Below, one piece after another: positions 20,137 through 31,880 of a stretch of 64,000 bases of DNA. The first letter of the stretch is position 1; the number at the start of each line of letters is the position of its first letter. A program made the position numbers and the translations under genes. Origin of the DNA: Acidobacteriota bacterium (GTDB lineage Bacteria; Acidobacteriota; UBA890; WLXD01); the NCBI GenBank assembly GCA_963666055.2, contig CAXWPH010000012.1, forward strand, positions 192,001-256,000. The letters run 5' to 3'. Below the pieces are notes generated by a model. It saw nothing but the letters and a program-made list of their open reading frames with translations. It searched no databases and was not told where the DNA came from.

Positions 20137-21408
20137 CTATGACGCAGACAGCGCTTGATCCAAGTCGCCGAGAATATCGTCGATATGCTCGATGCCCACG
20201 CAAAGCCGGATCATGTCCGGAGTCACGCCGGCGGCCTTTAGCTCGGCGTCGTTCAGCTGCCGGTGGGTGGTAGACGCCGGGTGGGCGGCGAGTGATTTGG
20301 CATCGCCGATGTTCACCAGCCGTTTGAACAACTCGAGCGCATCGTAGAATTTCACCCCGGCGTCAAATCCCCCCTTGGCCCCGAAGCTCAACAGCGCGGA
20401 TGGACGGCCGTTGGTGTACTTCTGCGCCAGGTCGTAGTACTTCGAGTCCGGCAAGCCCGCATAGTGCACCCAATCCACTTTGGCGTGTCCTTGCAGAAAC
20501 TCCGCTACCGCCTGCGCATTGTCCACATGCCGCTCCATGCGCAGCGGCAGCGTCTCAATGCCCTGCAAGATCAGGAACGCGTTGAACGGGCTGATGGCCG
20601 AACCGGTATTGCGCAGCGGCACAGTCCGCGCTCGTCCGATATACGCGGCCGGGCCTAGGGCGTCGGTATAGACGACGCCGTGATAGGAGGGCTCAGGCTG
20701 GGTGAGGCCCGGGAACTTGTCGGCATGATCGGCCCATGGAAAGTTCCCGCTATCGACGATCAGGCCGCCAAGCGAGTTACCGTGGCCGCCCATGTACTTG
20801 GTCAGCGAGTGCACAACGATGTCGACGCCGTAGTCGATCGGCTTGAGCAGCGGGGGCGGAGCCACCGTGTTGTCCACGATGACCGGAATACCGTGTTCGT
20901 GCGCCATCGTCGAGATCGCTTCGATGTCGGCAATATTGCCGGCGGGGTTGCCGATGGTCTCCGCGAAAACCGCAACCGTCTTGTCGTCGATCAGCTTTTC
21001 CAAATTGGCAGAGCTGTCGTCTTCCGCAAAGCGCACTTCAATGCCTTGCTTGGGCAACATGTGGGCAAATAGCGTGTAGGTACCGCCATACAGAAGGGGC
21101 ACGGAGACCACGTTGTTGCCGGCTTCGGCAATGTTGAGAATCGAATAGTTGGTCGCGGCTTGACCGGAGCTCACGGCCAGACCCGCGACGCCCCCCTCCA
21201 GTGCCGCAACGCGTTGTTCGAGCACATCCGCCGTGGGATTCATGATGCGGGTATAAATGTTACCCGGAACGGCAAGATTAAAGAGATCGGCCCCGTGCTG
21301 CGCATTGTCAAACTCGTAGGCCACGGTTTGATAGATCGGTACCGCCACCGCTTTGGTTGTCGGGTCGGTTGTATAGCCGGCATGTATGGCCAGCGTTTCG
21401 TCCTTCAT
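20137..21408 (-). CDS. metY: O-acetylhomoserine aminocarboxypropyltransferase (PLP-dependent)
   Basis: PIYQT, YTRIMNPT, DNT, HSLTK (PLP lysine), NIGDAKSL..HPASTTH; next to metA. Confidence 0.92.
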   Translation of the reverse strand: MKDETLAIHAGYTTDPTTKAVAVPIYQTVAYEFDNAQHGADLFNLAVPGNIYTRIMNPTADVLEQRVAALEGGVAGLAVSSGQAATNYSILNIAEAGNNVVSVPLLYGGTYTLFAHMLPKQGIEVRFAEDDSSANLEKLIDDKTVAVFAETIGNPAGNIADIEAISTMAHEHGIPVIVDNTVAPPPLLKPIDYGVDIVVHSLTKYMGGHGNSLGGLIVDSGNFPWADHADKFPGLTQPEPSYHGVVYTDALGPAAYIGRARTVPLRNTGSAISPFNAFLILQGIETLPLRMERHVDNAQAVAEFLQGHAKVDWVHYAGLPDSKYYDLAQKYTNGRPSALLSFGAKGGFDAGVKFYDALELFKRLVNIGDAKSLAAHPASTTHRQLNDAELKAAGVTPDMIRLCVGIEHIDDILGDLDQALSAS

Positions 21409-21480
21409 GTGAATCTTCTCTCCCTTGTCAGTTACCTGTGTCGTCGACGATAGCGAAATCACCTGCGGATGGTTGGCGAG

Positions 21481-22560
21481 TCAACGGGAACCAAGCCCAA
21501 GGCCGAGCGGGTCCTTCGCGTCTACCCCAGAGGCGAACGGCCGACGACGATCATGGTTCGTGTACTGGTAAACCAGTCCGAGCCAGTTGTTGAAAATGGC
21601 TTTGCCGGTATCGTTCCAGGTGTTGTCTAGATGGGGCGTTAGCTCCACCTCCGGGAACTCTGGAACGGCGTCCCCGGTGTTCTTGGCTTGCATCGCACTG
21701 CGCAGATAGGCCTCGGCAATATCGACGGCCGCGTCGTTGAAGTAGTTCTCGGGATATGGGGGCGGCGCGTCGACCTCGTCGTTGAGAAATCGAAACACCT
21801 CACGTTTGTATTCCTTGAGCAGACTATTGGAATCGTATTCGGGATGCCCCTGCATGTAGACGATGCGGAATTGGTCCGGGCTGGCCGCCATGTGTACTCC
21901 TGCTACCTCGCTTTCCACCAGGGTCTTCAGACCTGCCGCTTCCAGTTCGTCGCGCCGCACCTCGTTCCAACGAGAGTGCGGCACATCAAAGCGGGTGTTG
22001 ATGTCTTGCATGAGCGGATGATGTCTATCCAGCACTTGATGGCTAAACACTCCCCAACGTTTGCACGGCAACCGATGCCGGTCGATCTGATGCAGATGTT
22101 TGACCAGTGCATGGGTAGACAAGCATGAGCACAAGACGCTGGTGACGTTCTCAGCGGCCCACGCAATGACGTCCTGTAGTGGCTTCCAGAACGGTTCCAG
22201 TTGGATTGAAGGGCTGGTGACGTTGGCCCCCGAGATAATGAGGGCATCGAGGCCCGCTTCGCGCAACTGGTCGAAGCTGGTGTAATGGTTGTCTATGTAG
22301 GCCTCGGCCTCGGCGCTACGCGGTAGACCGGAAACCGAGAAGGGATGGACGTAGAATTGCGCAATCTTGTTGGAGCTACCGATGAGCCGCATGTACTGCT
22401 GCTCGGTGACCCTCAAAGCGGCATCCGGCATCATGTTCAGCAGGCCAACATGAAGCTCCCGTATGTCTTGCGACAGCGCCCGCTCCAAGCTGAGAACCTC
22501 CTGTCCTCGCGCTCGCAAGCGATCAAAAGTCGGCAGCTTAGAATGGGCGACCAGCGGCAT
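21481..22560 (-). CDS. metA: Homoserine O-succinyl/acetyltransferase, MetA family
   Basis: QDIREL..LLNMMP, catalytic Cys (CSCL), PHSR, GHPEYD, NNW. Confidence 0.9.
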   Translation of the reverse strand: MPLVAHSKLPTFDRLRARGQEVLSLERALSQDIRELHVGLLNMMPDAALRVTEQQYMRLIGSSNKIAQFYVHPFSVSGLPRSAEAEAYIDNHYTSFDQLREAGLDALIISGANVTSPSIQLEPFWKPLQDVIAWAAENVTSVLCSCLSTHALVKHLHQIDRHRLPCKRWGVFSHQVLDRHHPLMQDINTRFDVPHSRWNEVRRDELEAAGLKTLVESEVAGVHMAASPDQFRIVYMQGHPEYDSNSLLKEYKREVFRFLNDEVDAPPPYPENYFNDAAVDIAEAYLRSAMQAKNTGDAVPEFPEVELTPHLDNTWNDTGKAIFNNWLGLVYQYTNHDRRRPFASGVDAKDPLGLGLGSR

Positions 22561-22650
22561 GCTCGCTTCCCTACCTGCGGTGGCTTGGCGCCAGAAGTCA
22601 GCAGTCCTTGGCCAGACTACAGGAACCCGACCACCCACACGCGGAGGCCG

Positions 22651-23491: not shown

Positions 23492-23768
23492 TAACAGGGT
23501 GCTGAAAAACTCTGATGGGTCTGGCGGGTGGGTCTTGCTGGCGAGATCAAGGAAGAGCGACGAGGGCGATGCCAGGGTCATCGTCGAGGAGCTCTGACGC
23601 TGAGATCGCCAGCAAGACCCACCCGCCCAACGGGTTACGGCGTCGTGGAGCCATCTGCAGCGTTGGCCCTCCTGGACGATACGACAAGCATCGCCCGCGT
23701 CGCGCCGCCTTGCATCTGGCTCCACGACGCCGTAACCAGACCCACCAGAGTTCTTCAGCACCCTGTTA
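23492..23768. mobile_element. MITE-like element, copy 1 (277 bp)
   Basis: 33-bp TIR TAACAGGGTGCTGAAAAACTCTGATGGGTCTGG with 2 mismatches; flanking TA; internal perfect stems 23523-23544/23606-23627 and 23633-23653/23717-23737. Confidence 0.85.
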
Positions 23769-23865
23769 GTGTATTGAAGCGCAACCAGGGTAGACTGCGT
23801 GACCAGTGATCGGCCGCCGGTCGCGGACCCCACCCAGGCGCCGCAACGTTGGAGCGAGGAATTCG

Positions 23866-25242
23866 ATGACCTTGCGCACCGTGACGCTCGAGATTCTAGT
23901 GATGCTGCTGGCATTCTTGCCGGCCAACGGTCATGCACAGCAAGACCAGGGCGGGTTGCAGATCGGCCGCCCCTTCCCGGACATCGCGCTGCCAGACCTG
24001 GACGGCAACCGTCGCAGCGTTGCCGACTTTCGTGGCCACAAGCTGATCCTGCATGTGTTCGCCTCGTGGTGAGCTGGCTGCCGCGTGCACGTGCCCGGGT
24101 GGCACGAAGCGACGAAGGCGTGGCAGGCGGCCGGCGACGTACAGATGCTCGGCATCGTTCAGGAACAGCATCCGGAACGAGCGCGCCTGTTCATGCAATG
24201 GAAGGAGATGGATTGGCCGGTGCTGGTCGACTCTCTCGATCTGCTCGAGATCCAGGTCGTTCCGCTGACCTTCGCGATCGACGAGCACGGCATCATCCGA
24301 CAGATCCATCCGCCGCTGGATCGTCCGGATGAGCTGCGGCGTACGTTCGTGGATGTGCAGTTTGAGCCGCTAGACAACACGGCGTCGACGTCGATGGCGC
24401 CACCCGACCTACATCGTCAGCGGGCCCACGATCTGTACCGCTGGGGTGACGACACCCAGATCGACGCCATCGTCGATGCATTCAAGACCGCCGCCAGCGA
24501 CAGCCCGGAGCATGGCTACGGGCTGTTCCGCACCGGCGTGGCATACCGACGCCGGCACGACTCAACCGCGGCGCACCTCGGTGACTTCCAGCGCGCCGTG
24601 CACTACTGGGAGGCTGCGCTAACGGTCGATCCTAACAACTACATCTGGCGCCGCCGCATCCAGCAGTACGGCCCACGGCTCGACAAACCCTACCCGTTCT
24701 ACGATTGGGTGCCGACAGCCCGCACCGAGATCGCCGCCCGCGGAGACGTGCCAGCGAGCCTGGCTGTCGAGCCCGGTGGTGCGGAGTTCGCGCAGCCAGC
24801 ACCAGCCTTCGCTGCCGACGCCACCAAGCCGCCCGAGATTGACGACCGCATCTTGCGCGACGACGGTACTTACATCGTCGCTGAGAGCACGCTCGTCCCC
24901 GGCACCGTTGCGCCGGGTGCCAGCACGCGCGCTCACATAACGTTCCTGCCCAACGCGGCGATCAAGGCGCACTGGAACAACGAGGTCGACGATCTCGTGT
25001 TCTGGATCGAGCCTCCCGACGGATGGGAGGTCGATCGTCGCTTGGTGACGGTAGCCAACCCACCACAAACCGTGAGCCTGGAGCCGCGTACGGTCGAGTT
25101 GGAGATTCGAGCTCCGGGCAACGCTACGAGTGGCGAGATAACCCTTCCTGGGTACGCTCTCTACTACGTCTGCGAAGACGTCAACGGTATCTGTCTCTAT
25201 CGTAGCCAGGACGTTGCGTTACAACTTCGCGTGCAGAACTGA
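23866..25242 (+). CDS. Putative exported selenoprotein: TlpA-like thioredoxin domain (UxxC) + TPR-like + DsbD-alpha-like domain, 458 aa
   Basis: ORFs 23806-24072 and 24085-25242 are in the same frame. TGA 24070-24072 gives FASW-U-AGC-R. SECIS-like hairpin downstream; GAGGA RBS; signal peptide; C-terminal YVCEDVNGICLY. Confidence 0.8.
24082..24111 (+). promoter_or_regulatory. Candidate bacterial SECIS element
   Basis: Stem CGTGCC (24090-24095) / GGCACG (24101-24106), loop CGGGT with G at position 2, 23 nt after the UGA; CGC/GCG lower stem. Confidence 0.65.
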
Positions 25243-25296
25243 ATGAAGGCCGTCCACCGAGCCACGCGCCAGAGCGTGCGGCGCAGGAGCATGCAA

Positions 25297-26724
25297 ATGT
25301 CGAGGACCTGTGTCTGGGCTACGGTGCTTGTCGCACAGGCAAGCCTTGTGGCCGCCCAAACATCATCTAGCCTCGCCCCGGAGACCATGGAGTTCGTCAG
25401 CGTCGACGCTCCGATCGTCGCGCTGACCGACGTGCAGCTGATCGATGGCACTGGCGGGCCGCCAAAGACCGGCCACACCGTGCTCGTGCGAGACGGTCGA
25501 ATTGCCGCCGTAGGTCCCGCCGACGAAGTAACCATCCCGGCAGGGGCCGAGGTGCTGCAGCTGAGCGGCCACACGGTCATTCCCGGCCTCGTTGGCTTGC
25601 ACAACCACACCTTCTACACATCGCCCGGCGCGAACTACAGCCACATGGTGTTCACGGCGCCTCGCCTTTACCTCGGGAGCGGCGTCACGACGATCCGTAC
25701 CACCGGCACGCTGATGGCCTATAGCGATCTGAACATCAAAGCGCAGATCGACCGCGGCGATATTCCCGGACCGAGAATCCACGCCACCGGCCCCTACCTT
25801 GACAACAGCGCCAACCCCCTCGACACGATCGAGCCGAAGACCGCCACCCCAGAGGACGCCCGCAGGCTCGTGGCCTACTGGGATGAGGAGGGCATCGAGT
25901 GGTTGAAGGCGTACACCAGCATCAGCCGCGAGGCCCTGGGCGCGGCGATCGACGAGGCGCACAAACGTGGGCTCAAGGTAACCGGGCATCTTTGCTCGGT
26001 GACCCACGGCGAGGCGGTCGAGCTCGGAATCGACAACCTCGAGCACTCCTTCATCACGATGAGCGACTTCGTACCCGGCAAGGAGGTCAACGAGTGTCCG
26101 CCCGAGATGAGCGCGACGCTTGCCAATCTGGACATTGCCAGCGATGAGGTACAGGAATCCATCCGCCACATCGTCGCCCACGGGGTGTCGCTGACGTCGA
26201 CGCTGTCGGTGTTCGAGTGGAGGATCCCCAACCGCCCGGACATACATCCGCGGGCCCTCGAGATGATGACTCCGCGGCTGCGCGAGGAGTACGCGGAGCT
26301 TCGCGAACGAACTCGCGAGACCGCCGATGAGCGCGCCTTCATGACGGGGTTGCTGACCAACGCCATGGCGTTCAACCGAGCGTTCGTTGACGCCGGGGGC
26401 GTGCTGGCGAGCGGCGTTGATCCGGCGGGCGGGGCGCTGCCGGGATTCGGCGATCATCGCAACTACGAGCTGTTCATCGAGTCGGGGTTTCGGCCGGAGG
26501 AGGCCATCCAGATCATGACGGCGAACGGCGCCGAGGTGCTCGGCGTGAGCAACGAGCTCGGCACGGTCGCGGTTGGTAAGTTGGCAGACCTGGTGGTGAT
26601 CGATGGCGACCTCACCGCGGACGCAAGCATGATCCGTAACGTGAGCATCGTTTTCAAAGATGGTGTTGGCTTCGACGCCGGTAAGCTGCTCGACTCGGTC
26701 AAGGGCCAGGTGGGGCTGCGTTAG
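25297..26724 (+). CDS. Secreted metal-dependent amidohydrolase
   Basis: PGLVGLHNH, GVTTIRT, GHL, EH, GVD, GKLADLVV; AGGAG RBS. Confidence 0.9.
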   Translation: MSRTCVWATVLVAQASLVAAQTSSSLAPETMEFVSVDAPIVALTDVQLIDGTGGPPKTGHTVLVRDGRIAAVGPADEVTIPAGAEVLQLSGHTVIPGLVGLHNHTFYTSPGANYSHMVFTAPRLYLGSGVTTIRTTGTLMAYSDLNIKAQIDRGDIPGPRIHATGPYLDNSANPLDTIEPKTATPEDARRLVAYWDEEGIEWLKAYTSISREALGAAIDEAHKRGLKVTGHLCSVTHGEAVELGIDNLEHSFITMSDFVPGKEVNECPPEMSATLANLDIASDEVQESIRHIVAHGVSLTSTLSVFEWRIPNRPDIHPRALEMMTPRLREEYAELRERTRETADERAFMTGLLTNAMAFNRAFVDAGGVLASGVDPAGGALPGFGDHRNYELFIESGFRPEEAIQIMTANGAEVLGVSNELGTVAVGKLADLVVIDGDLTADASMIRNVSIVFKDGVGFDAGKLLDSVKGQVGLR

Positions 26725-26769
26725 ACCCCCGTCGACGCCACCAATTCTCGTCGCCTCCAAGGAGCGCCC

Positions 26770-28020
<1,251 letters not shown>

Positions 28021-31702: not shown

Positions 31703-31880
31703 TAGCAGGGTGCTGAAAAACTCTGATGGGTCTGGCGGGTGGGTCTTGCTGGCGAGATCAAGGAAGAGCGACGAGGGCGATGCCAGGGTCATCGTCGAGG
31801 AGCTCTGACGCTGAGATCGCCAGCAACCCCCACGCGCCCAACGGGTTACAGACCCACCAGAGTTCTTCAGCACCCTGCTA
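31703..31880. mobile_element. MITE-like element, copy 2 (178 bp, second hairpin module absent)
   Basis: Near-identical to copy 1 over the TIRs and first module; 99 bp shorter; ends TAGCAGGG...CCCTGCTA. Confidence 0.85.

Follow-up and report, generated by a model that had tools for sequence, protein, structure and literature searches.

Selenoproteins that carry a UxxC motif in a redoxin-type domain are a catalogued class (PMC13188914, Table 1; PMC9312934), and common methods of selenoprotein discovery lean on cysteine homologues (PMC12013277). A relevant precedent outside this class is the pairing of a thioredoxin-like (Trx-like) domain with an Ig-like domain in Arabidopsis SOQ1 and human NHLRC2. 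The CTD of SOQ1 resembles nDsbD (bioRxiv 2021.03.16.435614), and it has been described as receiving electrons from the Trx-like domain and reducing MetO, the question of repair by a Trx-fed Ig domain being left open for nDsbD and NHLRC2 (bioRxiv 2024.11.01.621559).

The window, by which we mean the whole 64,000-nucleotide stretch analysed, holds two forward-strand ORFs, 23806-24072 and 24085-25242, which lie in one frame and are separated by the TGA at 24070-72. A sequence-only reading had proposed that the two halves form a single gene; their coordinates bear out the shared frame, and the read-through peptide which it quoted, KLILHVFASW-U-AGC-RVHVPGW with the downstream VDSLDLLEIQVVPLTFAIDEHG, matches our translation exactly. 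Read through from ATG 23866, the gene yields 458 aa. The UGA almost certainly encodes selenocysteine (Sec) in one 458-residue, likely exported redox enzyme, a prediction to which we attach this confidence because the TGA lies at a Trx active site, is kept in all related DNA copies examined and is followed by a conserved hairpin. The features of the locus, of which the earlier reading left the signal peptide, the TPR region and the C-terminal Ig domain with its Cys pair unmentioned, are as follows.

23856..23860, + strand: Shine-Dalgarno-like GAGGA, 5 nt ahead of ATG 23866 (from sequence)
23866..25242, + strand: full coding sequence, 458 aa, Sec as residue 69 (from translation and model)
23866..23937, + strand: predicted Sec-type signal peptide, residues 1-24 (hydrophobic core KD11 2.79; cleavage site placed by eye)
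23947..24366, + strand: TlpA/ResA-like thioredoxin-fold domain, approximately residues 28-167 (PF00578, Foldseek, VIA)
24070..24072, + strand: in-frame UGA, predicted selenocysteine codon, U69 (TGA in 158/158 covering loci)
24090..24106, + strand: predicted bacterial SECIS hairpin with a 6-bp stem and 5-nt loop CGGGU (folding, frozen codons, covariation, model criteria)
24409..24738, + strand: helical TPR-like region, approximately residues 182-291 (Pfam TPR_2, model helices, invariant columns)
24838..25239, + strand: C-terminal Ig-like beta-sandwich with Cx6C (model pLDDT 95.8; Cys436 at 25171-73, Cys443 at 25192-94)

In domain and motif, the 458-aa protein agrees with the definition of the Prx-like thiol:disulfide oxidoreductase selenoproteins (PF00578, UxxC), namely UxxC in an AhpC-TSA/Redoxin-type thioredoxin fold. 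The tables of catalogued UxxC redoxins, with which comparison is by description only, give no TPR or DsbD-N-like partner domain. It is quite possible that the family is already catalogued under a generic redoxin name. We found no description of a three-domain family (UxxC Trx, TPR and Ig) in the literature searched on bacterial selenoproteins. The best NCBIfam match was NF041054 (ResA-like WAxxUGC motif-containing protein), with which the protein has the ResA-like Sec domain in common and whose weak matches run into the helical region in two family members. However, it falls outside NF041054, scoring 61.4 bits where the model's cut-off is 300 (four other members reach 57-79), and it carries UAGC where NF041054 has UGC, as well as the extra Ig domain. 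No NCBIfam model was matched at cut-off, all scores being far below. A second gene of the same genome, L107, is a much closer match to NF041054 (274 bits).

With TlpA, ResA and CcmG (DsbE) the protein has in common its fold (Z up to 12.4), export signal and Pro loop, and DsbD, too, joins a Cys-pair Ig domain to a Trx fold; the protein differs from these in its Sec active site, its fused TPR and Ig domains and its lack of a membrane domain. The likeness to SOQ1 and NHLRC2 lies in a domain that is Trx-like and in an Ig-like one at the C-terminus whose last hairpin bears a Cys pair. SOQ1 is likewise extracytoplasmic, and the NHLRC2 pair, given as C689/C696 (bioRxiv 2024.11.01.621559), has the same Cx6C spacing as C436/C443. 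The differences are TPR helices for the NHL propeller, Sec for Cys, and the lack of any HAD or transmembrane part. Judged by its predicted structure, which places no NHL beta-propeller between the domains, the 458-aa protein is not a member of the SOQ1/NHLRC2 family.

The AlphaFold model of residues 25-458 reached a pLDDT of 94.7 and a pTM of 0.92. The protein begins with a hydrophobic stretch, as do the products of 72 of 78 homologous loci, ten of them lipobox-like, and such N-termini make it very likely that the protein is exported to the periplasm. The thioredoxin-fold domain carries U69-A-G-C72 and a V132-P133 loop; it scored 50.6 bits against PF00578 (cut-off 26), exceeded the cut-off of PF08534 as well, and its top folds were ResA/DsbE (Foldseek, ResA at E 1e-9; VIA, 4grf at Z 12.4, rmsd 2.1 over 133 residues). 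The TPR-like region includes the conserved segment NxYIWRRRIQQYGPRLDKPYPFYDW, and, at E<=1, Pfam TPR_2 matched 70 of the 101 divergent members searched. TPR proteins also dominated a PDB sequence search with alignment A2, because that alignment spans the whole downstream part.

Besides U69, the only cysteines of the protein are C72, C436 and C443, the latter two in the Ig domain. Against 13 PF11412-matching sequences, hhalign gave this domain a probability of 80% (E 1.4e-5; reversed control 0.2%), and the Cys pair fell on the same columns as theirs. Pfam returned no PF11412 match for the query domain at E<=1, the cut-off not being reached, and weak PF11412 matches in 4 of 101 family members (best 0.0072). 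Fold searches returned generic Ig folds, and DsbD-N was not among the matches listed; SOQ1 (7djl, Z 8.7, rmsd 3.2, 104 aligned) appeared amid unrelated Ig folds with a best Z of 11.1, and its match is thus not above those of unrelated Ig domains. We consider the C-terminal domain probably, not certainly, DsbD-N-like.

The best overall explanation of these features is, in our estimate, a selenoprotein acting as a two-centre envelope reductase in which electrons pass from the Trx domain to the C-terminal pair (probability roughly 0.58). A specific relay, from CcdA to U69-C72 to C436-C443 to substrate, is one that we favour by little more than even odds. Electrons from cytoplasmic thioredoxin would cross the membrane via CcdA and reduce the U69-C72 selenenyl-sulfide; reduced U69/C72 would then pass electrons to the DsbD-N-like Ig domain by reducing its C436-C443 disulfide, and the reduced pair would in turn reduce or repair oxidised envelope proteins, probably bound by the TPR region. 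The genome contains an ordinary MsrA, and an Msr role for the selenoprotein is therefore not required by default.

The flow may instead be reversed: like nDsbD, the C-terminal pair would draw electrons from a donor in the membrane and recycle a Sec site that itself works on substrates, whether as an isomerase, a disulfide reductase or a peroxidase. This direction suits the usual role of Sec as the catalytic residue that faces the substrate. A precedent exists in nDsbD, which donates to Trx-fold proteins such as PilB (bioRxiv 2024.11.01.621559). The genome's only PF11412 match also lends itself to such a flow: it belongs to L117 (G000:C15:815500-816820), in which a DsbD_N domain (PF11412, E 2e-12) is fused to an AhpC/TSA Prx-like UxxC protein (W-U-P-Y-C), a setting in which it would be natural to recycle the peroxidatic site. 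However, the sole transmembrane donor in the genome, its only DsbD-TM match, is a CcdA-type protein of 242 aa, and CcdA reduces Trx-fold partners directly, while SOQ1, the one characterised Trx plus nDsbD-like fusion, runs from Trx to CTD. Reversed flow thus appears unlikely.

Fairly improbable is a single-centre, ResA/CcmG-like selenoenzyme, engaged for example in apocytochrome c reduction, in which the TPR region would be a chaperone and the C-terminal disulfide structural. The ResA/DsbE top folds would suit such an enzyme, as would the matches of TPR_CcmH_CycH to 7 of 101 members (best 1.5e-5) and the non-redox nature of the Ig domain's best fold matches. Against this, the last hairpin holds the Cys pair, which aligns with the catalytic pair of DsbD_N, and no cytochrome-maturation gene occurs among the shared neighbour clusters. 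Moreover, the C-terminal pair is gone in non-Sec forms. All 153 complete loci retain C72 together with the Cx6C pair (151 by pattern, two by eye; 5 of 158 loci were incomplete and excluded from this count). Full-length relatives without Sec are few and degenerate, comprising P0266 and P0326 (C-E-G-S, CxxS) and P0328 and P0327 (S-x-x-C, the latter with a chimeric C-terminus). The HVPGWH peptide is gone from all four, and the C-terminal pair is missing in P0266, P0326 and P0328. They sit on long branches in a quick tree of 63 rows (every third locus plus 12 others) and may have a single origin; the apparent co-loss of Sec motif and Cys pair rests on one or two lineages.

We fetched 80 genome loci and, with a divergent alignment, 80 metagenome loci. 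The UGA column is covered by 79 of each, with TGA in 79/79 and 79/79, or 158 of the 158 covering loci among the 160 fetched; 150 of the 158 surrounding 60-mers are distinct. The TGA occupies the first C position of the CxxC column, and all covering loci display a UxGC motif. By record labels the homologous loci fall into six phyla (Acidobacteriota, Gemmatimonadota, Planctomycetota, Verrucomicrobiota, Anaerolineae and Krumholzibacteriia), the nearest relatives of the host organism being Acidobacteriota (L009, 79%). A few records come from genomes marked unpublished (L023 of G014, one of 79 loci; G126, one of 18 carriers; G223 and G101 in the baseline), and no conclusion rests on them. The sequence-only reading would have taken as refutation a complete genome lacking the Sec machinery, close homologues that all carry Cys and lack a conserved hairpin, or raw reads with TGC or TGT. 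None of the three applies. The homologues carry TGA and a hairpin that is conserved and covaries, and contigs of public runs agree with the assembly: Logan contigs of X1, X3 and X4, which are assembled contigs and not raw reads, span 23736-24105 with an identical TGA. These three runs derive from two studies, of which one may have supplied the assembly, and X6 was without coverage of the TGA.

The hairpin is found exactly where the earlier reading placed it, with its stem at 24090-24095/24101-24106 and its G-containing loop CGGGU at 24096-24100, beginning 23 nt past the UGA. The bSECIS model, as given in the source, specifies a loop of 3-9 nt, a stem of 4-16 bp, a G in the first two loop positions, a spacing of 16-37 nt and an MFE <= -7.5 (PMC13188914); the hairpin has a 5-nt loop, 6 bp, C-G-G, 23 nt and -14.7 kcal/mol for 24080-24115, in keeping with a bacterial SECIS element. 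Two measures were rejected as evidence. Firstly, stability was no better than chance (z -0.28 to -1.57 over four windows). Secondly, a crude SECIS-like rule was passed by 1156 of 5979 (19%) arbitrary motif-flanked TGAs of the same genome.

Support for the predicted hairpin is instead drawn from conservation, that is, from frozen synonymous sites and covariation, and not from folding energy. The top codon accounts for 76/79, 78/79, 76/78, 73/74 and 74/76 occurrences (96-99%) at H75, V76, P77, G78 and H80, respectively; at 44 further columns with conserved H, V, P or G its share is 0.37-0.74. Of the cells in 146 distinct sequences, 95.7% were paired, and two-sided changes were seen in three of six stem pairs (18 cells), including a compensatory G-C to C-G change in ten sequences which couples Val-to-Leu with His-to-Gln. 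Slid partners paired at 18-62%, and none of 500 shuffles reached the observed level, relatedness inflating the shuffle control. RNAalifold independently recovered a 5-bp core of the hairpin, and 153 of 159 sequences have G[G/U] at positions 2-3 of the loop.

The decoding machinery is present in the host. In the assembly (95.7% complete), selA, selB and selD were all over cut-off, and two tRNA-Sec (UCA) genes represent selC, so that all four genes which the sequence-only reading proposed to look for are present. SelB-mediated insertion of Sec at U69 is, in our estimate, very close to certain. Among 78 genomes behind homologous loci, 74 contain selA; of the four others, three have selB over cut-off and the fourth a tRNA-Sec. 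Co-occurrence with selA within the phylum was set aside as uninformative: 16 of 18 carriers have selA, and this is weak evidence because 229 of 301 genomes have it anyway. The two carriers without selA both have selB and tRNA-Sec.

Several observations accompany this search. The host's tRNA-Sec genes, L007 and L008 (G000:C13:66094-66187 and C6:7936-8029), are almost identical and have the same downstream flank; several further genes and tRNA clusters also occur in two copies, and duplication or strain mixing is possible. The host SelD is a Cys form (C-A-G-C-G-S-K) within a 758-aa frame. ARAGORN called a tRNA-Pyl (CUA) at G000:C5:65608-65685, which may be spurious. In a related genome, an EF-Tu-like match under the selB cut-off contains one internal TGA (G155/G065:C6:15269-16447).

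It is very improbable that the UGA is read, without SelB, as Cys or Trp. Cys would keep the CxxC motif, but tRNA-Sec genes are the only UCA-anticodon tRNAs called in the genome, UGA also serves as the terminal stop of this same 458-aa gene, the hairpin fits the SelB-type SECIS model, and each of the carrier genomes tested possesses one or more Sec-specific genes. A true stop, whether through nonsense mutation, assembly error or two products with a GTG restart, is the least probable of all: TGA does serve as the true terminal stop in 30 of 79 family loci and V76 is GTG, a possible start codon, in 78 of 79 genome loci, but the same TGA recurs in 158/158 loci of several phyla with both halves conserved and in the public contigs, GTG 24085 has no Shine-Dalgarno-like motif upstream on inspection of the sequence, the split would cut the modelled thioredoxin fold at its active site, and V76 changes from GTG to CTG or GTA jointly with its pairing partner, so that conservation as a restart codon is disfavoured.

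The UGA also explains how the family has been stored. Among 268 relatives from the databases, 266 begin at residue 70 or later, in line with the earlier expectation that annotation would miss the full 458-aa protein. The 120 matches listed for a whole-protein search each cover just 79-84% of the query, and among the best 120 of 191 matches listed for residues 28-130 none covers more than 58%. The search profile comprised 402 positions without the pre-UGA region, because truncated rows formed the majority; full-length Cys forms were not favoured by it, and extra searches were run to compensate. No canonical CxxC form was found in the database searches (268 relatives, and the best 120 of 191 matches with residues 28-130), and no relative among ten candidate viral contigs. 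P0189 was rejected as a full-length relative, its upstream reach depending on an unrelated N-terminal reading. At 50% identity and E<=1e-30 the family comprises 450 clusters. Its members, stored as truncated "TPR/hypothetical" proteins, expose a systematic annotation error and add a nearly Cys-free selenoprotein family.

UGA recoding is probably common in the host organism, judging by 19 other in-frame-TGA candidates (L104-L123) hand-picked from two crude screens of its genome: read through, 18 match catalogued selenoprotein types, mostly below equivalog cut-offs. These comprise three DUF3179, DsrE, AhpD-like, arsenite methyltransferase, PrdB/GrdB-like, two glutaredoxin-like, WAxxUGC-like, five AhpC/TSA- or ResA-like, deiodinase-like, rhodanese and weak MerB-like proteins, while L123 matched no protein type. 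The predicted selenoproteome is large for an Acidobacteriota-like genome. Also in this genome, L110 (G000:C14:570311-571631, - strand) is a paralogue with 61% identity and the same UGA and SECIS; immediately ahead of its C-terminal Cys pair, a T run seems to contain a frameshift, which may be an assembly error or a real break.

L106 (G000:C6:363900-365450) is a UxxF protein and a second Sec protein carrying the same Ig family (E 6e-12); it consists of a signal peptide, a deiodinase-like domain (C-L-T-U-P-P-F), an HWNN...YYxC-x6-C Ig domain and EF hands. Proteins of the L117 kind are also encoded at L124-L128, L131 and L133, and 7 of 13 PF11412 matches in a class sample lie downstream of such a UGA.

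A broader extension of the two-centre reductase would make the 458-aa family the bacterial counterpart to SOQ1/NHLRC2, found widely and depending almost strictly on selenium. The enzyme would be secreted and act in repair, its Sec-thioredoxin charging a DsbD-N-like Ig domain that itself reduces MetO or other oxidised residues on TPR-bound envelope proteins, and it would be one of several fusions of Sec-Trx with DsbD-N-like domains (the 458-aa family, L106 and L117). In this full form the proposal is speculative and rather unlikely. If true, it would imply that Acidobacteriota and other phyla that are poorly studied possess a redox network of the envelope, based on selenium and so far unrecognised. 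The protein itself, small, soluble and bacterial, offers a model for testing whether a Trx-fed DsbD-N-like Ig domain can repair oxidised proteins.

The gene neighbourhoods of the 79 homologous loci contain no conserved partner that would hint at a donor or a substrate, and the most widely shared cluster of neighbours occurs in 6 of 79 loci; selB adjoins the selenoprotein gene in three. In the window, a Cys/Met PLP enzyme and homoserine O-succinyltransferase lie upstream (20137-22638, - strand), and an amidohydrolase beginning right at the stop, followed by a beta-lactamase-family serine hydrolase, lies downstream (25243-28020, + strand); both sets are absent from the shared neighbour clusters. 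A promoter and terminator scan around the gene gave chance-level results only. Just upstream of the gene, at 23492-23768, is a MITE-like element of 277 nt with 33-nt terminal inverted repeats and internal hairpins, of which a shorter copy occurs at 31703-31880 and 148 BLAST pieces, 21 of at least 250 nt, genome-wide.
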